Below, in pieces: positions 1,674 to 48,018 of a stretch of DNA of 64,000 nucleotides. The stretch lies in contig CAWJGJ010000002.1 in the NCBI GenBank assembly GCA_963842395.1, forward strand, positions 114,978-178,977. The letters are read 5' to 3'. This DNA is from an uncultured Acidimicrobiales bacterium. GTDB taxonomy: Bacteria > Actinomycetota > Acidimicrobiia > Acidimicrobiales > VFJN01. How positions within the stretch are numbered: the first letter of the stretch is position 1; each line of letters opens with the position of its first letter. A program made the translations under genes and the position numbers. The notes beneath the pieces were generated by a model that was not told the origin of the DNA, ran no database searches, and was given only the letters and a program-made list of their open reading frames with translations.

Positions 1674-2669
1674 ATGACCGCGCACGTGCGGGAGGCGGTG
1701 AACGAGGACCGGTTCGCCGCCGAGACCGAGCGGTTCCGCCGGGAGCTGTTGGCGCACTGCTACCGCATGGTCGGCTCGGCGCATGACGCGGAGGACCTGG
1801 TGCAGGAAACGTACCTTCGGGCCTGGCGTGCCTACGCTGGCTTCCAGGGCCGAGCGTCGATCCGGACCTGGCTCTACAAGATCGCCACCAACGTCTGCCT
1901 GACAGCCTTGGAGCCGCGCCGGCTCCGGGTGCTGCCATCGGGCCTGACAGGTCCATACGACGGACCCGATCGCCCGCCGAATCAGGCGGCGCCGGGCGAG
2001 GTCTCGTGGCTGGAACCCTTGCCGGACCGATGGATCGCCCCCGCCGCCGACGATCCGGCCGCGGCAGTGATCGCGCGCGAGTCGCTACGGCTGGCGCTCA
2101 TCGCGAGCCTGCAGCACCTGCCCGCCCGCCAGCGCGCGATCCTCATCCTGCGCGAGGTGCTGGCGTTCTCTGCCGTCGAAACTGCGGAGATCCTCGGCAC
2201 CACAACGGCAGCGGTGAAGAGCGCTCTGCAGCGCGCCCGCGCCCGGCTGGACGAACTGGAGCCAGAGCCCGAGGAACTGCTCGAACCGACCGACGAGCGG
2301 GCACGTGCGCTGCTCGACGGCTACATCGCAGCCTTCCAGCGCTCCGACGCTGAGCTGCTGGAACACGTGCTGCGGATGGACGCCACGCTGGAGGCGACGC
2401 CATTCCGCGACTGGCAGGCGGGCAGGGTGAAGTGCATCCACATGCTCGACACCTACGTGCTGGGCGCGCCGGGCGACTGGCAGATGACCGCCACCACAGC
2501 CAACGGCCAGCCCGCCGCCGCCGTGTACCACCGGGACGCGGACAACACCCTCCAGGCCCACGGCATCGTGGTGCTGGCCCCAACCGCCACCGGTGTCTCC
2601 CGCGTGGTCGAGTTCCACGATCCGGCGCTTGTCGCCACGTTCGGGTTCCCGGACGTGCTCGCAGACTGA
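1674..2669 (+). CDS. ECF sigma-70 family factor with long C-terminal SnoaL-like extension (SigG-like, about 330 aa type)
   Basis: Region 2 (HCYRMVGSAHDAEDLVQETYLRAW, IRTWLYKIATNVCL) and region 4 (LPARQRAILILREVLAFSAVETAEILGTTTAAVKSALQRAR), followed by about 130 extra residues. Confidence 0.9.
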   Translation: MTAHVREAVNEDRFAAETERFRRELLAHCYRMVGSAHDAEDLVQETYLRAWRAYAGFQGRASIRTWLYKIATNVCLTALEPRRLRVLPSGLTGPYDGPDRPPNQAAPGEVSWLEPLPDRWIAPAADDPAAAVIARESLRLALIASLQHLPARQRAILILREVLAFSAVETAEILGTTTAAVKSALQRARARLDELEPEPEELLEPTDERARALLDGYIAAFQRSDAELLEHVLRMDATLEATPFRDWQAGRVKCIHMLDTYVLGAPGDWQMTATTANGQPAAAVYHRDADNTLQAHGIVVLAPTATGVSRVVEFHDPALVATFGFPDVLAD

Positions 2670-5625: not shown

Positions 5626-6456
5626 TCAGGACGTGACCGGGTGCAGGAGCATCTCCTGCGCCATCGAGGCCACGATGAGACCCTGCCGGTTCCGGATCAC
5701 ACCGCGCAGCGTGCCGCGGCCGCCGGCGTTGACGAGGCTCTGCACGTCCTGGAGGTGCCAGTCGTCGGCGCGGGCGGGCCGGTGGAACCAGGCGCTGTGG
5801 TCGAGGCTGATCATGCCGGTGACGTCGCCCTCGAGGTGGAGGGGCCGGCCGCCCACGCCGGTCCAATCGGTGGCGTACCCGAGCAGGGCGGTGTGCAGGT
5901 GCGGCTCGTCGTCGAGCGGTCGGGGCAGGCGGAACCAGTGGCGGTGCGTCGCCTCACGGGTGCCGTCGGGTCGCATGGCGCTGGGCCCGACCCATCGCTC
6001 GTCCCACGGGCCGACCCCGTACTCAGGGAGGTCGGGCTCGGGGAGGTCCTCGGGCAGGGGCACGTCGTCGGGGATCCCCGACAGGTCGTAGACGTACCCG
6101 TCGGTGTCGGCGGTGAACGAGCAGGTCATCGTGATGACCGGTTTGCCGTCCTGCGATGCGGTGACGTGGTGCAGGTTGAACGCGCGTCCGGCCCTCACCA
6201 CATCGCTGCGGAACACGATCTCCTGCCCGCCCAGCACGGGCCGGAGGAAGTGGGCGTGTACCGAGTGGAGACGGCTTCCCACCGGGGCATCACCGCAGGC
6301 CGCACTGATCGTGATGGCGAGCCCGACGCCGCCGAACACGACCGGCCCGTACCAGTCGGGTGTCCGTCCCACCCACGTGTCTCCCCGCCGCTCGTGCCGC
6401 AGCAACGCGAGGAACTCGTCGATCGCCGCCTGCTGCTGGTCGACCCGGTCGGTCAC
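5626..6456 (-). CDS. Acyl-CoA thioesterase II (TesB-like, double hotdog)
   Basis: Typical TesB-like sequence (PDWYGPVVFGGVGLAITISAA, HSVHAHFLRPV, VRAGRAFNLHHVTASQDGKPV). GTG at 6456-6454 lies 1 nt after the TGA (6460-6458) of the upstream hydratase gene. Confidence 0.85.
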   Translation of the reverse strand: MTDRVDQQQAAIDEFLALLRHERRGDTWVGRTPDWYGPVVFGGVGLAITISAACGDAPVGSRLHSVHAHFLRPVLGGQEIVFRSDVVRAGRAFNLHHVTASQDGKPVITMTCSFTADTDGYVYDLSGIPDDVPLPEDLPEPDLPEYGVGPWDERWVGPSAMRPDGTREATHRHWFRLPRPLDDEPHLHTALLGYATDWTGVGGRPLHLEGDVTGMISLDHSAWFHRPARADDWHLQDVQSLVNAGGRGTLRGVIRNRQGLIVASMAQEMLLHPVTS

Positions 6457-6457
6457 C

Positions 6458-7258
6458 TCAACGCCCGCGGAACTCGGGCGCCCGCTTCTCGATGATCGCC
6501 TGCACCGCCTCCTGCCCGTCCTCGCTGTCGAGGCCGGCCAGCGCGCTGCGGATCTCATCGGTCATGCGGGCGTCGACGTCGCTGATCAACGGCGTTCTGG
6601 CGACGAGATGCTTCGTGCGCCGAACGGCGAGCGGTGCCTGGGCGGCGACCATTCCGCAGAACTCCAGGAGCCGCCGGTCGAGCTGATCGGCCGGAACCAC
6701 CTCCGACACGAGGCCGAGGCGGAGCGCCTCGTCGGCATCCACGAAGCGGGATTCGAGCAGGAAGCGCAGCGCGATCTCGTGACCGACGAGGGTCGGCAGC
6801 GACCATGTGAGTCCCCCGTCGGGCGACGTGCCCGCTCGCAGGTATCCCGGGTGCAGGCGGGCCGAGTCGGCCGCGATCCGGATGTCGGCGGCCATCGCCA
6901 GCGACAGACCCGCACCCACGGCCGCCCCGTTGATCCCGGCGACGACCGGCTTGTCGGTCTCGAACCGCAGCGCGAGCAGGAACCGTCCGACCCAGCTCTT
7001 CTCGTCGAGCATCTGCTCCTGGTCCGTCAGCCCGGTCTCGACCGGCGTGTCGTCACCACCACCCAGGTCGAGGCCGGAACAGAACGCGTCGCCGTTGCCG
7101 GTCAACGCGATGACCCGGACGTCGTCGTCCGCGTGGGCGTCTCCGACGGCCCGCACGATGCTCCAGCCGAGCGACGAGGTGAGCGCGTTCTTCCGCTGGG
7201 GACGGTCGAGCCTCAACACCCTCACGTGCCCGACGGTCTCGGCGGCCAGCTGCGACAT
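6458..7258 (-). CDS. Enoyl-CoA hydratase/isomerase (crotonase) family
   Basis: MSQLAAETVGHVRVLRLDRPQRKNAL ... VIALTGNGDAFCSGLDLGG ... KPVVAGINGAAVGAGLSLAMAADIRIA. ATG at 7258-7256. Confidence 0.85.
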   Translation of the reverse strand: MSQLAAETVGHVRVLRLDRPQRKNALTSSLGWSIVRAVGDAHADDDVRVIALTGNGDAFCSGLDLGGGDDTPVETGLTDQEQMLDEKSWVGRFLLALRFETDKPVVAGINGAAVGAGLSLAMAADIRIAADSARLHPGYLRAGTSPDGGLTWSLPTLVGHEIALRFLLESRFVDADEALRLGLVSEVVPADQLDRRLLEFCGMVAAQAPLAVRRTKHLVARTPLISDVDARMTDEIRSALAGLDSEDGQEAVQAIIEKRAPEFRGR

Positions 7259-7377
7259 CGCGCAAGGCTGCCATGCCCGACCGGCGCATGCCGTCTCCCC
7301 GAGAGCGGTGCGTGCAGCGTGTCGAACGCGCCGCACGCCATGCCGAGCCGTCGATCGTCGGCAGGCCATCGATCGGG

Positions 7378-7404
7378 TGTCACACCGACGGCCGGGCCGG
7401 TGTC
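7378..7404 (+). promoter_or_regulatory. ECF41-type promoter-like motif TGTCACA-N16-TGTC upstream of the SigJ-like gene
   Basis: TGTCACA at 7378-7384, 16-nt spacer, TGTC at 7401-7404, continuing TTCATGCCGAA. Nearly identical to the element at 46903-46929 on the minus strand. Resembles the ECF41 target promoter TGTCACA-N16-CGTC as I recall it. Confidence 0.5.
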
Positions 7405-7534
7405 TTCATGCCGAACGCCGATCGCTGGAGGTCGACATGCAGTCCAGCCCACGAGTCCCCGAGGCAGAGGATGGCGGCGTGCACGGGGCCCCGAGCGGCC
7501 GCCTGCCGAGCGGTCGCCACGTAGCCTCGCCGTC

Positions 7535-8404
7535 ATGAACGCCGACGCGTTCGCCCAGCACCGCCGCCTGCTGTTCACCGTCGCCTACGAGATGCTCGGC
7601 TCGGCGTCGGATGCCGAAGACGTCGTCCAGGAGACCTGGCTGCGGTGGGCGAAGGTCGACCAGTCGATCGTGCGCGACCCGCGCGCCTACCTGGTCCGCA
7701 TCGTCACCCGTCAGGCGCTCAACCGGCTCCGCACCCTCTCCCGGCGGCGGGAGGACTACGTCGGGGAGTGGCTGCCCGAGCCGCTCGTCACCAGCCCCGA
7801 CATCGGCGACGACATCGAGCTCGCCGAGAGCGTGTCGATCGCCATGCTGACCGTGCTCGAGACGCTGCGCCCCACCGAGCGGGCGGTGTTCGTGCTGCAC
7901 GAGGTGTTCGACACGCCGTACGACGAGATCGCCGAGGCGGTCGACAAGACGCCGGCAGCGGTGCGCCAGCTCGCGCACCGAGCCCGCGAGCACGTCGCCG
8001 CCCGCCGGCCACGGATGGATGTGAGCCGGGCCGAGCAGGAACAAGCCGTCGAGCGGTTCCTCGACGCTCTGCAGAGCGGTGACCTGCAGCGCCTGCTCGA
8101 CGTACTGGCGCCCGACGTCGTCCTCGTCTCCGACGGCGGGGGACTCGTGGCCGCGGCCCGGCGTCCGATCGAGGGGGCCGACCAGGTGGCACGCTTCCTG
8201 TCCAGGTTCCCCACCGCGGCGCCAGGCGCGCAGGTGCACACGGTGCTCCTGAACGGCGCACCCGCAGCCCGGATCGACCCGCTGGGCGCGGCGGACACCG
8301 CGGTCAGCCTCGTGGTCCAGGGTGGGCGCATCTCCCGGATCTACGCCGTGCGCAACCCCCACAAGCTGGCACGGCTCGACACGGAGACGCTGCTCACCCG
8401 CTAG
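7535..8404 (+). CDS. ECF sigma factor, ECF41/SigJ-like (fused SnoaL-like C-terminal domain)
   Basis: FAQHRRLLFTVAYEMLGSASDAEDVVQETWLRW (region 2), RAVFVLHEVFDTPYDEIAEAVDKTPAAVRQLAHRAR (region 4), about 110-aa C-terminal extension ending RIYAVRNPHKL. ATG at 7535. Confidence 0.9.
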   Translation: MNADAFAQHRRLLFTVAYEMLGSASDAEDVVQETWLRWAKVDQSIVRDPRAYLVRIVTRQALNRLRTLSRRREDYVGEWLPEPLVTSPDIGDDIELAESVSIAMLTVLETLRPTERAVFVLHEVFDTPYDEIAEAVDKTPAAVRQLAHRAREHVAARRPRMDVSRAEQEQAVERFLDALQSGDLQRLLDVLAPDVVLVSDGGGLVAAARRPIEGADQVARFLSRFPTAAPGAQVHTVLLNGAPAARIDPLGAADTAVSLVVQGGRISRIYAVRNPHKLARLDTETLLTR

Positions 8405-10601
8405 CTGCGACGCTCCGGCGTGACCGCACGAGTGCGGTGACGGACAGGCCGAACAGGGCGAGAGTCGGGATGGCCATGAGCCACAGCCGAGCGGCGCTCT
8501 CCGGGTTCTCGTAGTCATCCATGAGATAGAGGAGCTCGGCGATCAACAACATCAACGGGGTGGCGGCCACCGTGACGAGGAGCCAGCCCCCGACCTGCGG
8601 AGCGAGGAACCGCAGGCCGGCGTAGACCAGCGCAACGATGGCGACGCACGCCAGCAGGTACCAGAAGTCCGTCGCGCCGTTCGTGCCGAACAGGCCCCCG
8701 TACGGCTCGTCGTAGAGCGTGTAGAAGTCCACGTCCAGCGACAGGACGACGAGGAAGGACACGGCGATCGTTCCGACCTCGAGGCGTCTCGGCAACCAGC
8801 TCCCTCGACGCCAGGCACCGGCCCTGAGCAGCGCCAGGCCCGTCAGGCCCGAGAGCATCACGAGCCCGGCGGTCACCGTGGACCAGCCGTTGTCCTCCAG
8901 CAGCCATCCGTAGCCCGCGTGGCGCGTGGCAGCGCCGTCGCCGAGGACGAACAGGGACCACGGCACCGCGATGCCGAAGACGCAGGCCATGCTGCGCACG
9001 GCCCCGAGCGACGAGAGACGGCGCAGCCCGAGCATCGCCAGGGAGACGGCGCCGACGGTCACCAGTGCGATGCCACTCACCACCTCCGGCAGGAGCGGCC
9101 CGCCGGTGGCCTGGCGCCGCAGCGTGATGTTCTCACCGGTCTCGTACTCGATCGCGTCGATGAGACCGCCGTACGACACCACGACCGCGAGGCCGACGAT
9201 CAGGCTGGCGAGGGCCACGCCGGCGGCCCACCAACGGCGATCACGCCAGCGGGACGGGCCATCGCCGCTCGGCCCCTCCCCTGGCTCGGCGACAGCCGGC
9301 TCCGCCTCGGTCGGCGGCGGAGGCACAGCCGCCTCGGCCTCGATCGGCGGTGGCAAGGGCCGAGCTGCGGCCGGTTCCGCCTCCGCTGGCTCAGCTATGG
9401 CCGGCTCCGCTACGGCCGGTTCCGCCCCGGTGGGCTCAGCTACGGCCGGTTCCGCCTCGGTCGGCGGTGGCGACGGCGCCACCGAGCGCTCCTGGCGCGG
9501 GCTCGGCGGGGGTGAGGCCTCGCGCGGGTCGGCCACCTCGGCCGGGCGCCCGACCGGCGCGCGGACGCGCACGCTCACCCTGATCGTCTTGAGCGCCCCG
9601 CCGGCCTCGCGCACGTGGACGTTGGCCCGGTTGGGCCCGGGGCGCGGATGCAGGTGGAGCACGACGGCCCCGCCCTCGGCCACCGGTTCGACCCAGCCGG
9701 CCGTCGTCTCGACGGTCCAGTCGAGCGTTCCGCCCCCGCGGTTGATGACGGCGATGCGCTCGGGCGGCAGGTGCTCGTCGCTGCCGACCTCCCCGAGGTG
9801 GATCGCCGTCTCCGAGAGGTCGAGGACAGGTGTGGACTCCACCGGATCGACGACGTCGACGGGCGGGCGCTCGGCCTGGGTCACGGCCCGACGGGCCAGG
9901 GCGACGTCACCGTCGCCCTCGAAGCGCTTCTGGGGCACCTGACGCCCCTCGTTGGCGAGCGCCGTGCGCACATAGTCGTACAGCTCGCTCAGCGTGACGA
10001 TGCCGTCGTCGTCGTGGTCGACGGCGCCGCTCACGATGCCCTCGGCCAGGTGATGGGTGAACAGGCTGGCGTGATTGCGGACGTCGGCGTCGTTGGCCAG
10101 CTCACCTGGACGGCAGCTCGTCACGACGAACCGCCCCCGCCCCGACAGGGCCGCAGGGATGTCGCCACCCTTGAACCGGCCGCTGTGGCAGCAGTCCAGC
10201 ACGACGACCATCGTCCCCGCGGACGATGCATCCATCATGCCCCGAAGGTCCGATGCCTTGACCGCTGTCGACCTCAGGCGGTCCGAGCGTGTGTCGCGCG
10301 TGCACAGGAACAGCTCGCCGGACTGATCGAGCAGCCCGTGGCCGCTGTAGTAGATCAGCAGGGTGTCCCGACGCGTCGCGCTGACCAGGAGATCCTCTGC
10401 CTCGCTCAAGACCTCGGCCATCGTCCGCTCGGTCACCAGCCGCACGTTGTCCGGGGCGAACAGCCCGACCTCGCGTTCGCACAGCGCATCACGCAACAGC
10501 GCCGGATCGTTCCGCGGTCCCTCGAGATCGGGCAGGTTGAAGGCGTCCGCGGGGAACGTCGAGTTGGCGATCAGGACGGCTCGATAGGTCTGGGCCGTCA
10601 T
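8394..10601 (-). CDS. Caspase-family (peptidase C14) protease fused to EF-hand-like loop, beta-rich domain, Pro/Ala/Glu repeat linker and C-terminal 8-TM domain
   Basis: His/Cys dyad context YYSGHG and VVVLDCCHSG. Acidic loop DHDDDGIVTLSELYDY. Eight hydrophobic helices in the last ~275 aa. ATG 10601-10599 overlaps the TGA (10600-10598) of the upstream ORF. Confidence 0.85.
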   Translation of the reverse strand: MTAQTYRAVLIANSTFPADAFNLPDLEGPRNDPALLRDALCEREVGLFAPDNVRLVTERTMAEVLSEAEDLLVSATRRDTLLIYYSGHGLLDQSGELFLCTRDTRSDRLRSTAVKASDLRGMMDASSAGTMVVVLDCCHSGRFKGGDIPAALSGRGRFVVTSCRPGELANDADVRNHASLFTHHLAEGIVSGAVDHDDDGIVTLSELYDYVRTALANEGRQVPQKRFEGDGDVALARRAVTQAERPPVDVVDPVESTPVLDLSETAIHLGEVGSDEHLPPERIAVINRGGGTLDWTVETTAGWVEPVAEGGAVVLHLHPRPGPNRANVHVREAGGALKTIRVSVRVRAPVGRPAEVADPREASPPPSPRQERSVAPSPPPTEAEPAVAEPTGAEPAVAEPAIAEPAEAEPAAARPLPPPIEAEAAVPPPPTEAEPAVAEPGEGPSGDGPSRWRDRRWWAAGVALASLIVGLAVVVSYGGLIDAIEYETGENITLRRQATGGPLLPEVVSGIALVTVGAVSLAMLGLRRLSSLGAVRSMACVFGIAVPWSLFVLGDGAATRHAGYGWLLEDNGWSTVTAGLVMLSGLTGLALLRAGAWRRGSWLPRRLEVGTIAVSFLVVLSLDVDFYTLYDEPYGGLFGTNGATDFWYLLACVAIVALVYAGLRFLAPQVGGWLLVTVAATPLMLLIAELLYLMDDYENPESAARLWLMAIPTLALFGLSVTALVRSRRSVAASG
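9283..9472. repeat. Intragenic tandem/nested repeats (15-nt units plus a ~40-nt duplicated block) encoding AEPAV-type pentapeptides
   Basis: Units ggctcagctatggcc / ggctccgctacggcc / ggttccgccccggtg / ggctcagctacggcc / ggttccgcctcggtc. Block at 9283-9322 is repeated at about 9433-9472. Protein reads TEAEPAVAEPTGAEPAVAEPAIAEPAEAEP ... TEAEPAVAEP. Confidence 0.7.
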
Positions 10602-10984
10602 GGCCCAGCCGGCAGCTTCTGCGTCACCGTCGCCAGGAGGTCGTCGAAACGGGCGCTGTCGACCGCCGAACCGGACAGCTCGATCGACTCGACCGCACCG
10701 GAGTCGGCGGACCACGACACCTTGAGCGAGCGGGTGCGGTCGCGGCTCAGCCACGAGCGCGCCAGCTCGATCATCGCGGTCAGCCCCCCGGCGGAGACGA
10801 GCGGGATCACGATCGAATCGATGGCACCCTTGGCGCCCGGCTCCGGCGCTCGTCGCATCGCCACGCCGCCGACCCCGGCCTGCAGTTCGCCGACGAGTCC
10901 ACCGACCTGGTCCAGCCAGCGATCGTCCTGCATGTCGAAGCGCCCGCTCGCCGGTTCGAGCCGAAGCTCGACCTGCCCATCCAT
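10598..10984 (-). CDS. Small EACC1-like protein (effector-associated constant component), partner of the caspase gene
   Basis: 128 aa. AGGAGG 6 nt upstream of ATG 10984. ATGA overlap with the caspase start. Layout is a short N-terminal beta segment (VELRLEPASG), a hydrophobic core (IDSIVIPLVSAGGLTAMIELARSWL) and a C-terminal SLKVSWSADSGAVESIELSG. This matches my memory of EACC1 proteins but has not been checked with an HMM. Confidence 0.6.
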   Translation of the reverse strand: MDGQVELRLEPASGRFDMQDDRWLDQVGGLVGELQAGVGGVAMRRAPEPGAKGAIDSIVIPLVSAGGLTAMIELARSWLSRDRTRSLKVSWSADSGAVESIELSGSAVDSARFDDLLATVTQKLPAGP

Positions 10985-11111
10985 CGCGACCTCCTGGCCG
11001 CCGACGACGCCTGCCAGCGCCGTCGCCAGCCGGAAGTGTATTTCCCATTGCCGGCCAGCGGTAGGAATCGAATCCCTAGCGCCGCCCGGTCGCGGCTCGA
11101 CCCGGGTGGCG

Positions 11112-43990: not shown

Positions 43991-44365
43991 ATGGAACTCG
44001 AGGTCCGAATGACCCCAGCCGAACTTCGTGACTGTTGTCTGAGCAAGCCCTGCACGTCGGAGGACTTCCCGTTCGGCGAGCAGGTCTCGGTGTTCAAGGT
44101 CGCCGGCAAGGTGTTCGCGATCACCGACCTCGACGGCCTCCCGCTCGAGGTGAGCGTGAAGTGCGATCCGGATGTGGCGGAGGCGCTCCGGTCGACGCAC
44201 ACGGCGATTCGTCCGGGCTACCACCTCAACAAGCGGCACTGGAACACCGTGACCCTTGACGGCTCGATCAGCGACGGCGAGATCGAGGACATGATCCAGG
44301 ACTCGTACGACCTCGTCGAGGCCAAGCTCACGCGCGCCCAGCGCGCGGAGATCGGCCTTTCCTGA
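43991..44365 (+). CDS. MmcQ/YjbR-family protein
   Basis: FPFGEQVSVFKVAGKVFAI ... KCDPD ... PGYHLNKRHWNTV. Alternative start ATG 44009. Confidence 0.85.
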   Translation: MELEVRMTPAELRDCCLSKPCTSEDFPFGEQVSVFKVAGKVFAITDLDGLPLEVSVKCDPDVAEALRSTHTAIRPGYHLNKRHWNTVTLDGSISDGEIEDMIQDSYDLVEAKLTRAQRAEIGLS

Positions 44366-44462
44366 ACGAGGCCGCCCCCAGCGTCCGCACCTCAAGGCCG
44401 CTCCGGACAGCGCACGGCCAGCAGATCGCCGATCGGGCGCGACGTCGATCAGCCGCTGGGAT

Positions 44463-45254
44463 TCAGCCCACGTTCCTCACGAACCGGCGTATCTCCGTCG
44501 CACACGCCTCGGGGTCTTCCACCACGCACGCGTGGCCGAGCCTCGGGAGTGCCGCGAGCTGCGACGCCGGGATCGCCGCGTGGAGCATTTCGGCGTTCGC
44601 GAGCGGCGACCGAGCGTCGGCCTCGCCGTGCAGAACGAGTGTCGGTACGTCGACCGTGGGCAGCACCGGGCGGAGGTCCGTCTCCGCGCCGATGTGGCCC
44701 GCCGCTCGAATGGTGTCCGGGCGTATGTTCTCTCGCATCATCGTGACCAGCGCCGCGGCGCGGTCGGCCGGTATGAGCTCCGTGAACAGGCCCGGGTAGG
44801 ACGTCGGGTCGAACGCGTCACCCAGGTCGGCCATGCCGAGGAACATCTCGAGCCGTCGTGCCACCTCCTCTGGTGGCAGAGACCCTGCCCAGCCCGCATA
44901 GCCACCGATGAGCACGAGACCGGCCGGCACCGCCGGGTGGTGCTGGAACAGCGAGAGGGCGACCATCGTCCCGAACGAGTGGCCCACCAGGTACGGCCGC
45001 TCGAGGCCGAGCGCGGCGATGAAGGCGGCGAGGGCATCGGCGAACCACGCGGCGCGCCAGGTGTCGTCGATGTCGGACGACTGGCCGAAGCCCGGTGCGT
45101 CCCAGGCGATGACGGTGTGGTCGCGTGAGAGGTCCGGGAGCATCCACTGCCACGTGCGGCTGTCGGCCGGTGCGCCGTGAAGCATCACGAGCGGCGGGCC
45201 GGAGCCCGCGTGGGCGTAGGCGATCCGGGTCCCGCCGACGTCAACGTGCTCCAT
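44463..45254 (-). CDS. Alpha/beta hydrolase
   Basis: PPLVMLHGAP, nucleophile elbow LVGHSFGT, C-terminal LGHACVVEDPE. ATG 45254. Confidence 0.9.
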   Translation of the reverse strand: MEHVDVGGTRIAYAHAGSGPPLVMLHGAPADSRTWQWMLPDLSRDHTVIAWDAPGFGQSSDIDDTWRAAWFADALAAFIAALGLERPYLVGHSFGTMVALSLFQHHPAVPAGLVLIGGYAGWAGSLPPEEVARRLEMFLGMADLGDAFDPTSYPGLFTELIPADRAAALVTMMRENIRPDTIRAAGHIGAETDLRPVLPTVDVPTLVLHGEADARSPLANAEMLHAAIPASQLAALPRLGHACVVEDPEACATEIRRFVRNVG

Positions 45255-45376
45255 GCGTGAATCCTGCCGCAGAACCGACGCCGGCGCAGCGCGCGCCGAT
45301 CCTCGTCCACCGCTGAGGAGCTGGACGTGGACGGCGTCCCGACGGTCGAGGGACCCGGCGGACGGTCGGTCGTCGT

Positions 45377-45781
45377 CTACTCGCCGTGCAGGAACAGGCA
45401 GAGCGGATGACCGGCCGGGTCGAGCATGATGCGCAGGCGGTCCTGGTTGCGGTCGGGCGGTTGCCATGACGCCTCGGTGCCGCCCGCCTCGACCGCACGG
45501 GCCACGGCGACCTCCAGGTCGTCGACCTCCACCTCGAAGTGCATCATCTTCGCCTGCTGCTCGGGCTTCTCGGGCCAGGTGGGCGGCACGTACCCCTTCA
45601 TGCCTTGGATGTTGAGGTGGACGCCGCCCGCCGGGTCCGACAGCTGCGCCCAGAACGGACCCACCTCGCGGACCTTGAAGCCGAGCAGGGCCTCGTAGAA
45701 GTGCGCCATCGGCGGCGCCTCCGCGCAGTCGATCGCGAGCCCGACCCACCGCACCGTCGCACCAGACGTCTCACCGGTCAT
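45377..45781 (-). CDS. VOC (glyoxalase/bleomycin-resistance/dioxygenase) family protein
   Basis: FYEALLGFKV ... HFEVEVDDLEVAVARAVEAG ... MLDPAGHPLCL. Confidence 0.8.
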   Translation of the reverse strand: MTGETSGATVRWVGLAIDCAEAPPMAHFYEALLGFKVREVGPFWAQLSDPAGGVHLNIQGMKGYVPPTWPEKPEQQAKMMHFEVEVDDLEVAVARAVEAGGTEASWQPPDRNQDRLRIMLDPAGHPLCLFLHGE

Positions 45782-45833
45782 GAACCGAGAGTCTCGCCAA
45801 CGCGAGCTACGCGAGCAACAGGTCCGGCGACCA

Positions 45834-46214
45834 TCAGAGCGGCCAGCGGATGATGCAGAACTCGTTGCCGAACGGGTCCTTCATGACGGCCCACTCGAGG
45901 AGATCCCTGCCCTCCGGGGCGTACATGCCCGGCCACCTCACGACGACGCCGCCGATCGCCTCGATCTCTGCGACCGCAGCGCCGACGTCGTCCACCCGGA
46001 AGTCGACATGGGTTCCTCCTGGCCCGCTCTGCTCGGGGACCAGCTGCAGCAGGATCCACCCGTCTGACTCCGCGGGGTCATCCGCGTCGAGGACGGAGAA
46101 CTGACCATGTCGCCCCTGAGGCGACAGCCCGGACACCGCCGACCAGAACCGCTCGCCCTCGTCCAGGTCGGTCACGTTGATGACGGGCTTCCAGAGCTTC
46201 GCGATACCGGCCAC
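45834..46214 (-). CDS. VOC family protein (second, adjacent)
   Basis: INVTDLDEGERFWSAVSGL ... THVDFRVDDVGAAVAEIEAIGG ... MKDPFGNEFCII. GTG 46214 chosen as start. Confidence 0.7.
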   Translation of the reverse strand: MAGIAKLWKPVINVTDLDEGERFWSAVSGLSPQGRHGQFSVLDADDPAESDGWILLQLVPEQSGPGGTHVDFRVDDVGAAVAEIEAIGGVVVRWPGMYAPEGRDLLEWAVMKDPFGNEFCIIRWPL

Positions 46215-46278
46215 GGGAACACGATGCCCCGTGGCCGGCGCGTCCTCAATGTGCGTTCGGCGGTGAACCCGTCGTCGC

Positions 46279-46869
46279 TCACGCCGACGTCGCGGACCTG
46301 GCGGAGGGTTGCGCCAGCGGCAGCGCGCACACCTTGGAGAACCCTTGGGACTCGATCCCCAACGCCGTGTTGCCCCTCGTCGTCGAGTTCGCGAATCCGA
46401 CAACGGCCGTGAGCTCCACCAGGGCCGGCGCTCCCAGCTTCTTGAGCAGCCGGGCGGACAGCTCGTCGGTGACCCGCGGGGGCGTCTCGCTCATCGCCTC
46501 GGCGTACTCCATGACGTCACGCTCGAGCGGCGTGAACACGGTCGACTCACGCCACCGGGGCACCTCGCTGGCCTTCGCCTCGTCGAGTCCCTCGTTGTGG
46601 GCCTTGAAGTAGTTGAAGTCGAGGCACCAGGAGCATCCGACCAGCGAGGCGACCGCCATGTGGGCGAAGGTCTTCAGGTCGGGATCGAGCTGGTCCCACT
46701 TCTCGACCTTGCGGCCGAACCCCATGGAGCTGAAGAGCACCGCCCGGTTGTGCCACATCACTCCGGCCCCCTCGGGGACCTCACCGAGAAGCTTTCGGCT
46801 GAATCGCTTCAGCATCCACCCGTAGAAGCCGGTGATCTCGGCCTTGGGAATCCGAGGTGTGCTCGCCAT
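46279..46869 (-). CDS. Carboxymuconolactone decarboxylase (AhpD-like) family protein
   Basis: AGGAGG RBS before ATG 46869. AHMAVASLVGCSWCLDFNYF (CxxC-type AhpD-like core) and VELTAVVGFANSTTR. Confidence 0.85.
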   Translation of the reverse strand: MASTPRIPKAEITGFYGWMLKRFSRKLLGEVPEGAGVMWHNRAVLFSSMGFGRKVEKWDQLDPDLKTFAHMAVASLVGCSWCLDFNYFKAHNEGLDEAKASEVPRWRESTVFTPLERDVMEYAEAMSETPPRVTDELSARLLKKLGAPALVELTAVVGFANSTTRGNTALGIESQGFSKVCALPLAQPSARSATSA

Positions 46870-46902
46870 TCTTGTTCCTCCTGTCGATGTCTTCGACATG
46901 AA

Positions 46903-46929
46903 GACACCGCCCGCGTCCCGTGTGTGACA
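46903..46929 (-). promoter_or_regulatory. ECF41-type promoter-like motif TGTCACA-N16-TGTC upstream of the CMD gene
   Basis: Minus strand reads TGTCACA(46929-46923)-cacgggacgcgggcgg-TGTC(46906-46903)TTCATGTCGAAGACA, about 30 nt upstream of the CMD RBS. The -10 side (cggTGTCTTCATGnCGAA) is identical to the element at 7398-7415. Confidence 0.55.
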
Positions 46930-47230
46930 GCCAGGCACGCCCGCCCCACGACCCCTGAACGTCCTCATGCGGGAAGGCGGCCCGACCACGAACCGTGGCG
47001 AAGGCATCTGCGTACGACCACTCGGTAGAGCGCACGCTTTGCGCAGCCACGTGAGCATCGGAGCCGATCATGCCTGCACATGTCGTTCACACCAACGCCC
47101 GCACTGTCGCCGCCCGCAGGGGGCGAGGCGCCCGGCTGGCCGACGACTTCACCGATGCGGCCGCCATGCCGCGCATCTGGTCGTGGCCTCCGGCCCGTCT
47201 GTGGCCGCCACCCGCTGAGCTGATCGAGGG

Positions 47231-47251
47231 AGCGTCGGCTTAGCCGACGCT
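47231..47251. other. Perfect 9-bp stem / 3-nt loop hairpin in a ~400-bp unassigned intergenic region
   Basis: AGCGTCGGC-TTA-GCCGACGCT. Confidence 0.4.
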
Positions 47252-47277
47252 GGCGGGCCGGTGATGAGCCCCATCCG

Positions 47278-48018
47278 ATGTGGCGCGTTCGGGAAGGCTC
47301 GTCCCCGGGTCCTAGAGTCGCATCGGTGGTCCTGTCAGTTGACGATGTCGTGCCGTTGCACCTCGCCGACGTGACCTTTCCGGACGGGCATCCCTTGCAC
47401 GGTGCGACGGGAGCGGTGCTGGCGTTCGCCTTGCGACACCCGACCGGCTTGCTGCTGTTCGAGACCGGCATCGGCACCGGCAATCAGTTCATCGACGACC
47501 TCTATCAGGTGCAGCAGCGGCCCATCGACGGCGCGCTCGCCGCGCACGGTCACGACGTCGACGACGTGCGGCTGATCGTCAACTCGCACCTGCACTTCGA
47601 CCACTGCGGCAACAACTCCCGCTTCCCGGGCGTGCCGATCTATGTCCAGGCCGCCGAGTACCAGGCGACCCGGGAGCCGTACTACACCGTGCCCGAGTGG
47701 GTCGACTTCGACGGCGCCGAGTACGCCGTCATCGACGGTGACGCACAGGTCGCCGAGGGCGTGCGCGTCCTGTCGACTCCTGGTCACTCACCCGGCCACC
47801 AATCCGTCGTCGTCGACACTGCCGATGGCGGCGTCGTGCTCGCGGGACAGGCGATCTACTCGAGGGCCGAGTACGAACTCCTGCAGGCAACCACCAGTGG
47901 GTCCGAGGACGCTCCCCCGCCCGACCGCGAGCACTACCTCGCATCAGCGGCTCGCCTCATGCAGCTGCGGCCCCGTCGCGTCCACTTCAGTCACGACACG
48001 GCCGTGTGGGAGCGGTAG
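47278..48018 (+). CDS. MBL-fold metallo-hydrolase (N-acyl-homoserine-lactonase-like)
   Basis: HLHFDHCGN zinc motif and STPGHSPGH. Exact start uncertain. Confidence 0.8.
   Translation: MWRVREGSSPGPRVASVVLSVDDVVPLHLADVTFPDGHPLHGATGAVLAFALRHPTGLLLFETGIGTGNQFIDDLYQVQQRPIDGALAAHGHDVDDVRLIVNSHLHFDHCGNNSRFPGVPIYVQAAEYQATREPYYTVPEWVDFDGAEYAVIDGDAQVAEGVRVLSTPGHSPGHQSVVVDTADGGVVLAGQAIYSRAEYELLQATTSGSEDAPPPDREHYLASAARLMQLRPRRVHFSHDTAVWER

Follow-up and report, generated by a model that had tools for sequence, protein, structure and literature searches.

The stretch of DNA analysed here, which we call the window, is 64 kb long and represents ~4% of its 1.59-Mb source contig. It carries, on opposite strands, a CMD/AhpD-like gene and a gene for an ECF41/SigJ-family sigma factor, each preceded by a copy of one and the same promoter motif. 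We refer to the promoter at the CMD locus as P_A and to that at the sigma locus as P_B, where A and B denote two paralogous operon lineages, and to the two genes correspondingly as CMD_A and sigma_B.

The CMD and sigma loci

CMD_A (46279–46869, minus strand) encodes a protein of 196 residues that scores 38.9 bits against Pfam PF02627, above the gathering cutoff of 23, and whose translation contains a CxxC motif at residues 79–82 (C79-S-W-C82), which together place it in that family. Its Shine-Dalgarno sequence, AGGAGG (46877–46882, minus strand), lies 7 nt 5' of the ATG (46869) and is kept in the relatives L001–L004. Further upstream is P_A, TGTCACAcacgggacgcgggcggTGTCTTCATGTCGAA (46929–46892, minus strand), which begins 60 nt 5' of the ATG and is composed of an exact TGTCACA −35 element (46923–46929), likewise present at this position in L001–L004, L130 and L131, which are orthologous loci, and an extended −10 block, CGGTGTCTTCATGTCGAA (46892–46909), also kept in relatives, with the −10 core TGTC at 46906–46903. 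From ECF promoter geometry and the 22- and 23-nt leaders mapped for ECF41 promoters (Wecke et al., 2012, PMC3426412), transcription from P_A is predicted to start near A46893, with a leader of ~24 nt, about as short as those of the mapped systems.

At the 3' end of CMD_A lies a 20-nt sequence, GTGAGCGACGACGGGTTCAC (46263–46282, minus strand), that aligns with the starts of the L001, L003 and L004 sigma genes and which we interpret as what remains of the 5' end of a sigma gene of lineage A that was deleted. Directly downstream of CMD_A follows a Glyoxalase_6 (VOC) gene whose start codon is uncertain (45834–46214, minus strand; PF18029, 66.6 bits), then, after a gap of 52 nt, a second Glyoxalase_6 gene (45377–45781, minus strand; PF18029, 70.5 bits), and an alpha/beta-hydrolase gene (44463–45251, minus strand; Pfam Abhydrolase_1, 89.5 bits). 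Scans of positions 44300–47300 for intrinsic terminators and sigma-70 promoters found none, and the two glyoxalase genes and the hydrolase gene are possibly co-transcribed with CMD_A, with the hydrolase gene possibly the last of the unit.

The sigma factor gene, sigma_B (7535–8404, plus strand), encodes 289 residues comprising sigma2, a WLPEP linker, sigma4 and a SnoaL_2 C-terminal domain. It is recognised by the family models TIGR02957 (352.7 bits, cutoff 323.25) and PRK09636 (SigJ; 323.9 bits, cutoff 271), and its domains by the Pfam models Sigma70_r2 (58.9 bits), Sigma70_r4_2 (52.8 bits) and, at residues 172–235 of the C-terminal extension, SnoaL_2 (PF12680, 33.7 bits). The linker, GEWLPEPLV (residues 77–85), is invariant in our alignment and contains the WLPEP motif that is conserved between sigma2 and sigma4 in ECF41 proteins (Wecke et al., 2012, PMC3426412). 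No co-transcribed anti-sigma gene is found at the sigma locus, which is flanked by a divergent enoyl-CoA hydratase gene upstream and a convergent gene for a caspase-domain protein downstream. A COE gene adjoins ~66% of ECF41 genes, the remaining 34% being orphans (Wecke et al., 2012, PMC3426412); such a neighbour is typical of the group, if not strictly defining, and sigma_B, upstream of which there is only a 99-nt CMD remnant, is an 'orphan' in these terms.

This remnant is contained in a mini-ORF of 33 codons (7437–7538, plus strand) with a GGAGG Shine-Dalgarno sequence of its own (7427–7431), whose TGA overlaps the ATG of sigma_B (ATGA). P_B, TGTCACAccgacggccgggccggTGTCTTCATGCCGAA (7378–7415, plus strand), begins 59 nt 5' of the mini-ORF ATG and 157 nt 5' of the sigma ATG. 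The TGTCACA −35 element of P_B (7378–7384) can be aligned with the promoter of L007, where the lineage-B operon is intact, and the extended −10 block, CGGTGTCTTCATGCCGAAC (7398–7416), is identical to that of L007; the −10 core TGTC lies at 7401–7404, and the predicted start site is near A7414.

The original prediction held that the CMD/AhpD-like gene stands behind a copy of the promoter of a sigma gene 39 kb away, with the same −35 element, an equal spacer and a shared −10 block. This is borne out: both strings are present, with the two genes ~39 kb apart, and they agree in the −35 element, in a spacer of 16 nt and in the block GGTGTCTTCATGnCGAA. Only the coordinates given for the CMD promoter need correction, the 42-nt string ending at 46888 and not at 46890. 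Within the window, TGTCACA-N16-TGTCTTCATG[Y]CGAA occurs exactly twice, and the shorter TGTCACA-N16-TGTC also has two exact matches, P_A and P_B. The same two sites alone are recovered with the relaxed ECF41 pattern TGTCACN-N15-17-YGTY and with the 17-nt block when up to 3 mismatches are allowed, for which 0.19 matches are expected in 64 kb. Both sites fall within the ~250 bp in front of a COE or ECF41 gene where ECF41 promoters are expected, and both combine TGTCACA, N16 and TGTC, in line with the 16 ± 1 nt spacer and CGTC/TGTT-type −10 element of ECF41 promoters. The core TGTC is intermediate between the two experimentally verified −10 elements and is also found in Bcav_0284; the published consensus at this position is CGTC, a difference that counts against the ECF41 reading.

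Conservation of the promoter across Actinobacteria

In all six lineage-A relatives, which were fetched by protein homology (L001–L004, L130 and L131), the sequence TGTCACA-N14-GGTGTCTTCATGTCGA is located 60 nt 5' of the CMD ATG, and behind the CMD gene each of them has a gene for a 289-residue sigma factor, with an ATGA overlap where called. The DNA homology between the CMD locus and L001 starts exactly at the −35 element of P_A. The promoter is also present at the orthologous position in the lineage-B loci L007–L009.

The motif extends well beyond these relatives. Its exact 19-base version, TGTCACA-N14-GGTGTCTTCATG, has matches in the genomes of at least 120 actinobacterial species, where we estimate ~4 chance matches on the assumption of a uniform base composition. 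Among the matches listed, the motif is followed by a CMD gene in 108 of the 115 evaluable loci, and 97 loci show the order CMD-then-ECF41-sigma. Two bases outside the search pattern are conserved in other species as well, the C before GG (110 of 116 loci) and the C after ATGn (102 of 116). Conservation across these loci includes the flanking C21 and C35 but not the spacer, and it ends ~8 nt past the ATG, a pattern that fits a promoter; P_A and P_B agree with the resulting consensus at every conserved position. Orthologous loci and cross-species matches thus strongly back the predicted ECF41-type identity, and in the explanation that we consider likely as a whole, both copies would be genuine ECF41-type promoters that descend from the promoter heading an actinobacterial CMD-then-ECF41-sigma operon.

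The ATG within the conserved TTCATG does not mark the start of CMD on a leaderless mRNA, as the CMD frame relative to this ATG is split 40/36/32 over the 108 loci, which is uniform, and TTCATG is followed in these loci by a Shine-Dalgarno sequence and a second ATG. Gene callers often misassign the CMD start to the ATG within the promoter block, a start-codon error that should be corrected. The conservation of the actinobacterial promoter beyond the published TGTCACA-n16-CGTC, through GGTGTCTTCATGnCGA, also provides a longer block that is usable for regulon prediction.

Remnants of two paralogous operons

Six relatives have an intact CMD-sigma operon to which the CMD locus is orthologous. CMD_A is 91–93% identical to the CMD genes heading such operons in lineage A and 68% identical to those of lineage B. 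The stub behind CMD_A aligns with the L001, L003 and L004 sigma genes (ATGAGCGAGGACGCGTTCGC) over their first ~20 nt, homology ends there, and the ATGA by which the sigma gene ancestrally overlapped the stop codon of CMD now reads GTGA. Because sigma_A is intact in relatives whose CMD is 93% identical, its deletion is recent. A simple internal deletion of sigma_A that kept the original downstream gene is not supported, since the glyoxalase gene behind CMD_A is not orthologous to the one behind the L001 operon and there is no flanking synteny.

The sigma locus bears the marks of the opposite loss. Aligned to L007, it retains the promoter, the leader and ~25 CMD codons, and, after a gap of ~470 nt, the last ~60 nt of CMD; the 3' end of the mini-ORF also aligns with the 3' end of CMD in L005. 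We read the mini-ORF as the remnant of the lineage-B CMD gene after an internal deletion. That sigma_B might be a relocated copy of the sigma factor missing at the CMD locus is excluded by its identity of 84–90% to lineage-B sigmas, as against 72–74% to lineage-A sigmas; the lineage-A sigmas of the closest CMD relatives are 89–90% identical to one another.

In the light of these alignments, the window is best described as holding complementary halves of two paralogous CMD-sigma operons, and the two promoter copies and the 39-kb separation between target and regulator can be traced to two related operons that each lost the opposite gene. This cause had been missed in the original prediction, which had the arrangement itself right, as it did in naming CMD as an ECF41 target class (Wecke et al., 2012, PMC3426412). 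Sigma factor, type of promoter and class of target all belong to established ECF41 biology and the arrangement is unusual; what is new is the origin of the two copies as complementary remnants of two paralogous operons.

Both remaining genes are under purifying selection (dN/dS of 0.31–0.48 for CMD_A and 0.25–0.30 for sigma_B), although selection on the split state is not demonstrable from these values, since most of the divergence behind them predates the split.

Proposed control of the CMD gene in trans

Between the two lineages, the sigma factors are 82–89% identical in sigma2 and 84–85% in sigma4, but only 57–60% in the C-terminal domain. The segments DPRAYLVRIVTRQ and AAVRQxAHRAREHV are nearly identical between lineages, and the −35 and −10 elements are common to both.

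We propose that the genome once carried the paralogous operons A and B. Operon A (46929–46263, minus strand) would have kept its promoter and CMD and lost its sigma gene save for the 20-nt stub, and operon B (7378–8404, plus strand) would have kept its promoter and sigma gene and lost ~470 nt inside CMD. Together with core RNA polymerase, sigma_B would recognise TGTCACA at −35 and (C)GGTGTC at −10, and transcription would begin ~10 nt past the C of TGTC. Acting at P_B, it would promote its own gene in a positive autoregulatory loop, with translation of the sigma factor probably coupled to that of the mini-ORF; acting at P_A, 39 kb away, it would most likely drive the orphaned CMD_A in trans, on a transcript that the two glyoxalase-fold genes and the hydrolase gene may share. 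The SnoaL_2 domain presumably gates the activity of sigma_B, as it does in other ECF41 proteins. Taken as one explanation, the split of the operons, the autoregulation of sigma_B and its control of P_A in trans seem to us likely, the regulatory part being read from sequence features. A second sigma factor encoded in the window (1674–2669) is not a candidate driver of CMD, as it belongs to the TIGR02960 family and is not an ECF41 protein.

P_A could also be a genuine ECF41 promoter that is served by another ECF41 sigma factor, encoded outside the 64-kb window, with sigma_B contributing little or nothing. Several ECF41 paralogues are common in actinobacteria (Wecke et al., 2012, PMC3426412), one related MAG carries two operons with this promoter (L031, L113), any of the lineages could recognise P_A given their common −35 and −10 elements, and the window shows only a small part of its contig. 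On the other hand, the operon's own sigma_A is deleted, the only ECF41 sigma factor of the window has DNA-binding regions near-identical to those of lineage A and an intact autoregulatory promoter, and the window's other sigma factor is of a different family, and we rate service by an outside sigma factor as unlikely, while giving it some weight.

Considerably less probable is that one or both loci are decaying relics, in which these promoters no longer drive expression of the orphan CMD or sigma gene and the motif is still there only because little time has passed since the deletions. The deletion of sigma_A is indeed recent, and irregular loci occur among the relatives: L006, which has a comparable remnant-plus-sigma layout, combines a degenerate promoter (TGTCACG and an extra T) with an out-of-frame remnant, which could reflect decay or Nanopore indel errors, in L042 the promoter is followed by a sigma fragment only, and L002 and L005 contain frameshifts. 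Against this, both promoters of the window match the cross-species consensus at every conserved position, both ORFs are of full length with all domains and with dN/dS of 0.25–0.48, and the mini-ORF still has the Shine-Dalgarno sequence, the start codon and the overlapping ATGA that coupled translation of the sigma factor requires.

P_A also contains a perfect 7-bp inverted repeat, TGTCTTC-N5-GAAGACA, which exists as predicted but lies at 46906–46888, 1–2 bases off the 46889–46907 first given for it. P_B lacks the second arm of the repeat, as do the six orthologous CMD promoters, all of which read TCGATCAC, and a perfect GAAGACA occurs nearby in only 2 of 119 loci from other species, at varying positions; the repeat is probably incidental, and its lack of conservation rules it out as an operator. 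The idea that the shared block is no promoter at all, but the operator of a dimeric repressor binding this inverted repeat or part of a dispersed repeat, is effectively refuted, given that the window holds two copies rather than many, with diverged spacers and no contiguous similarity outside the −35 element and −10 block, and that the block sits at the orthologous position in relatives and keeps a constant distance to the CMD-sigma operons that it precedes in other genomes.

In the preferred reading, with both promoters of the ECF41 type and served by sigma_B, the two loci resemble the ECF41 systems RSP_0606/0607 of R. sphaeroides and ydfG/ecf41 of B. licheniformis, in which an ECF41 sigma factor acts on the promoter of a COE target (Wecke et al., 2012, PMC3426412). 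They share with these the succession of sigma2, WLPEP linker, sigma4 and a C-terminal extension of ~100 residues without an anti-sigma factor, the TGTCACA element spaced by 16 nt from a YGTC/YGTT −10 element, and a CxxC CMD target. In those systems, however, the CMD gene adjoins or overlaps the sigma gene in what is the only target operon, whereas here the two genes lie 39 kb apart, on opposite strands, and stem from two paralogous operons, and the −10 core, here TGTC, is embedded in a longer block, GGTGTCTTCATGnCGA, that is not described in the text of Wecke et al. (2012, PMC3426412). Bcav_0284 of Beutenbergia cavernae, listed as 'CMD> ECF>' in Table S1 of the same study, has a CMD of the same subfamily (MSTTRVPPTEITG...) and the same promoter subtype (...TGTCACGccggggagccgggcGGTGTCTTCAT), but its operon is intact, not split, and its −35 element has one mismatch. 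A precedent for action in trans on the promoter of an unlinked ECF41 locus, as proposed for sigma_B, is M. tuberculosis SigJ at the sigI promoter, where the target is a sigma gene and not a COE gene and where there are neither gene remnants nor complementary loss (Goutam et al., 2017, PMC5766207). S. meliloti RpoE9/SMb20029 likewise has a single CxxC CMD target and a TGTCACA-N16-CGTC promoter followed by ATGG, but this proteobacterial operon is intact and its promoter is without the TTCATG extension (Lang et al., 2018, PMC6180224).

With a regulator and a target that are separated and come from different paralogous operons, the window offers a natural test of cross-recognition between ECF41 paralogues, and also of whether the divergent C-terminal sensor domain sets the timing of CMD induction. 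The situation resembles the duplication-degeneration-complementation model, which Force et al. in 1999 reportedly proposed for regulatory subfunctions of single eukaryotic genes, in that each duplicate loses a complementary part, so that both loci are needed for full function; the units lost here are, in contrast, whole genes of a bacterial two-gene operon. For annotation, it follows that an 'orphan' ECF41 sigma factor or CMD may be half of a former operon, detectable by short gene remnants.

More tentatively, and with somewhat less than even confidence, we suggest that complementary deletions have repeatedly split paralogous CMD-ECF41 operons in Actinomycetota, that the sigma factor of one lineage, with its different SnoaL_2 sensor domain, may take over the CMD of another in trans, that the signal inducing CMD_A may have been rewired in this way, and that the mini-ORF may be kept by selection for coupled translation. 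If so, the two glyoxalase-fold genes and the hydrolase gene might come under ECF41 control. Three loci of other genomes are independent parallels: L091 and L103, in which CMD is followed by a sigma stub, and L117, in which a mini-ORF of 11 codons overlaps the sigma ATG.

Two copies of an ECF41-type promoter

Both promoter strings of the original prediction were recovered by exact sequence match, TGTCACAccgacggccgggccggTGTCTTCATGCCGAA at 7378-7415 of the plus strand (P_B, ahead of the ECF41 sigma gene sigma_B) and TGTCACAcacgggacgcgggcggTGTCTTCATGTCGAA at 46929-46892 of the minus strand (P_A). They are the two exact matches to TGTCACA-N16-TGTC in the 64-kb window; the 17-nt block GGTGTCTTCATGnCGAA, searched with up to three mismatches, has only these two sites in the window against 0.19 expected, and a relaxed ECF41 pattern gave no window-wide site beyond P_A and P_B. 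The two copies have the same -35 element and the same -10 block, and the spacer has diverged. The ECF41 promoter is defined as TGTCACA-n16(+/-1)-CGTC, with TGTT and CGTC as the experimentally verified -10 elements (Wecke et al., PMC3426412).

As predicted, P_A lies just 5' of a Shine-Dalgarno sequence (AGGAGG, 46882-46877, minus strand) and of CMD_A (46869-46279, minus strand), a 196-residue protein of the carboxymuconolactone decarboxylase (CMD)/AhpD family (PF02627, 38.9 bits) that carries a CxxC motif and for which a protein search returned thousands of close homologues. The proposal that P_A drives CMD_A is backed as far as sequence analysis reaches, and the alternative that the shared block is a dispersed repeat unrelated to promoters found no support, the promoter being widespread before CMD-sigma operons and not a local repeat. 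An inverted repeat that had been noticed in the same region, TGTCTTC-N5-GAAGACA, is indeed present, at 46906-46888, one to two bases away from where it had been placed. Neither P_B nor any of the six orthologous CMD promoters has it; among the matches listed it recurs as a perfect match, at varying positions, in two of 119 loci of other species, and it is probably incidental.

Conservation of the promoter across Actinomycetota

Exact matches to TGTCACA-N14-GGTGTCTTCATG, a pattern of 19 fixed bases, were sought in one genome per species and occurred at at least 120 loci (L010-L129), where we estimate about four by chance under uniform base composition. Almost all of the matches listed belong to Actinomycetota and extend from Streptomyces to Acidimicrobiia and Rubrobacteraceae. 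In 97 of the 120 listed the promoter is followed by CMD and then sigma, in six by a CMD gene cut by the block end, in one by CMD with sigma further downstream, in four by CMD without sigma, in two directly by sigma and in five by other genes; five were too short for evaluation. At positions outside the pattern, and hence unbiased by it, a C precedes GGTGTC in 110 of 116 and follows ATGn in 102 of 116 of the matches listed, with a weaker g-a-a-c after the latter C, and conservation is absent in the spacer and past about +8 after the ATG (116 of the matches listed). This profile fits a -10 element followed by a discriminator and a start-site region, and the CMD-ECF41 promoter of actinobacteria is conserved well past the published TGTCACA-n16-CGTC. 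The extended block, C-GGTGTCTTCATG-n-C-g-a-a (7398-7416 and 46909-46892 in the window), is common to at least 120 species, and no description of it was found in the literature searched; a Beutenbergia promoter listed in Table S1 of PMC3426412 ('CMD> ECF>') ends in ...GGTGTCTTCAT.

The ATG within the block was ruled out as the start of CMD, whose reading frame relative to this ATG is split 40/36/32. Gene callers often begin CMD there, giving 205-213 aa instead of 196 aa, as in the homologues P0001 and P0025/26/28/36/39 and in the lineage-B relative L007 (5363-6004), whose usual CMD start position is ACG, not ATG. With the C of TGTC at -10, as in ECF promoter geometry, +1 would lie at the A of CGAA, for a predicted CMD_A leader of ~24 nt. 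Leaders mapped by Wecke et al. are close to this, at 22/23 nt (PMC3426412). The extended promoter also stands before a Flavodoxin_5 protein gene (L097), two Pyr_redox_2 oxidoreductase genes (L101 and L109, the latter followed by a sigma gene) and a methyltransferase gene (L025).

Origin of the two loci

Six lineage-A loci related to the CMD locus (L001-L004, L130, L131) were picked by protein identity alone, their CMDs being 82-93% identical to CMD_A. In all six, TGTCACA-N14-GGTGTCTTCATGTCGAtcac..GACAGGAGGA starts 60 nt before the CMD ATG, and a lineage-A ECF41 sigma gene directly follows CMD. An intact sigma ORF was called in four of them (L001, L003, L004, L130), and there the CMD stop and the sigma start overlap as ATGA; in L002 the sigma gene (6588-7457) is full length with three frameshifts. 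L001 (9941-10605) matches window positions 46929-46265 at 92.8% DNA identity, from the -35 element through the first ~18 nt of the sigma gene, and in a gapped alignment the stub GTGAGCGACGACGGGTTCAC (46282-46263, minus strand) aligns with ATGAGCGAGGACGCGTTCGC, with no homology beyond. Together, the end of the match and the gapped alignment argue that the CMD locus is a former operon whose sigma gene was deleted to a 20-nt stub; the deletion is recent, because relatives with a 93% identical CMD keep the gene. Flanking synteny around the operon was seen neither in the window nor in any of the six relatives, and the genomic surroundings of the unit thus differ from genome to genome, as for a cassette. 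DNA homology between the window (46929) and L001 (9941) sets in exactly at the -35 element.

The sigma locus belongs to lineage B. Its product, sigma_B (7535-8404, plus strand, 289 aa), is a SigJ/ECF41 factor (TIGR02957 and PRK09636 above cutoff) with a WLPEP linker and a SnoaL_2 C-terminal domain, and shares 90, 87 and 84% identity with the sigmas of L005, L006 and L007-9, respectively, and 72-74% with those of lineage A. L007-9 have an intact CMD-sigma operon behind a promoter, TGTCACAaccgaggggcgggcGGTGTCTTCATGCCGAAC, with the same extended -10 block as P_B. Aligned to L007 (5333-6030), window positions 7378-7560 comprise the promoter, leader, Shine-Dalgarno sequence and ~25 CMD codons, then a ~470-nt gap, the last ~60 nt of CMD and the sigma start. 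The CMD 3' end in L005 likewise aligns to the 3' part. The CMD remnant forms a 33-codon mini-ORF (ATG at 7437 to TGA at 7536-7538, plus strand) with its own GGAGG and a stop that overlaps the sigma ATG. Since this ATG lacks its own Shine-Dalgarno sequence, in the window as in L001, the one intact operon inspected, coupled translation of sigma_B may depend on the mini-ORF and its ATGA overlap. An 11-codon mini-ORF overlaps the sigma ATG via ATGA in the same way in L117 (Streptomyces sp. NPDC052101); these two independent cases (n = 2) are suggestive and statistically not significant. L006 has a comparable remnant-plus-sigma layout, but with the remnant out of frame and a degenerate promoter (5860-6001; TGTCACG and TGTCTTTCATG), and CMD_B of L005 (1-391) has one frameshift. 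The frameshifts in L002 and L005 and the defects in L006 may reflect either genuine decay or indel errors of long reads.

CMD_A is 91-93% identical to lineage A versus 68% to lineage B, and CMD_A and sigma_B derive from different paralogous operons, the opposite gene having been lost at each locus. CMD-ECF41 operons headed by the same promoter occur twice (L031 and L113) in at least one related MAG, CAWAQO01 (Acidimicrobiia MFD02840.bin.2.225), indicating that paralogous copies coexist in relatives. This coexistence, with the derivation of the two loci from paralogous operons, argues that the shared promoter reflects common descent and continued constraint. For CMD_A and sigma_B, dN/dS is 0.25-0.48, in line with purifying selection, the divergence behind these values mostly predating the split. 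That the two paralogous operons survive as complementary, unlinked halves is the sole unusual aspect; the mechanism is standard ECF41 biology.

Probable recognition in trans and operon break-up elsewhere

P_A is without its own sigma gene, and the -35 and -10 elements do not differ between lineages. Identity between lineages is 82-89% in sigma2 and sigma4, with almost identical DNA-contacting segments, and only 57-60% in the C-terminal sensor domain. From these comparisons we infer that sigma_B probably recognises P_A in trans. The second sigma factor of the window (1674-2669, plus strand, 331 aa), ECF-type with a long C-terminal extension, falls into the TIGR02960/PRK08241 family (341 and 400 bits), is 29% identical to sigma_B, and is ruled out as an ECF41 factor by its TIGR02960-type assignment. 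Adjacent COE genes, the target class that includes CMD, were the sole detectable ECF41 targets in the earlier survey, in which 34% of ECF41 genes were orphans without a neighbouring COE gene and about 30% of these orphans carried the promoter (PMC3426412). M. tuberculosis SigJ acts on the sigI promoter (PMC5766207), a precedent for trans regulation between ECF41 loci.

In R. maanshanensis (L091, MTEDTEDPFVARRGLL...stop) and Micromonospora sp. (L103, VSEEPFVA...), a stub of the sigma 5' end follows the promoter and an orphan CMD, an indication that break-up of the operon by deletion recurs. R. jostii (L100) and Rhodococcus sp. WS4 (L111) are among the independent cases, and in a Streptomyces sp. 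(L042) the promoter is followed by a sigma fragment only. One protein of 413 aa (P0173, on a 399-kb contig) combines CMD and ECF41 sigma Pfam domains and is either a true fusion or the product of a frameshift where the two genes overlap at ATGA.

Downstream of CMD_A, in its orientation and at gaps of 52-125 nt, come two Glyoxalase_6 genes and an alpha/beta-hydrolase gene, with no terminator prediction across this 3' region; all three may now be transcribed from P_A. Convergent with sigma_B lies a large ORF (8394-11048, minus strand) that encodes an N-terminal caspase domain (Peptidase_C14, 60.4 bits), then a repeat region rich in proline and alanine, and a C-terminal part that is hydrophobic.
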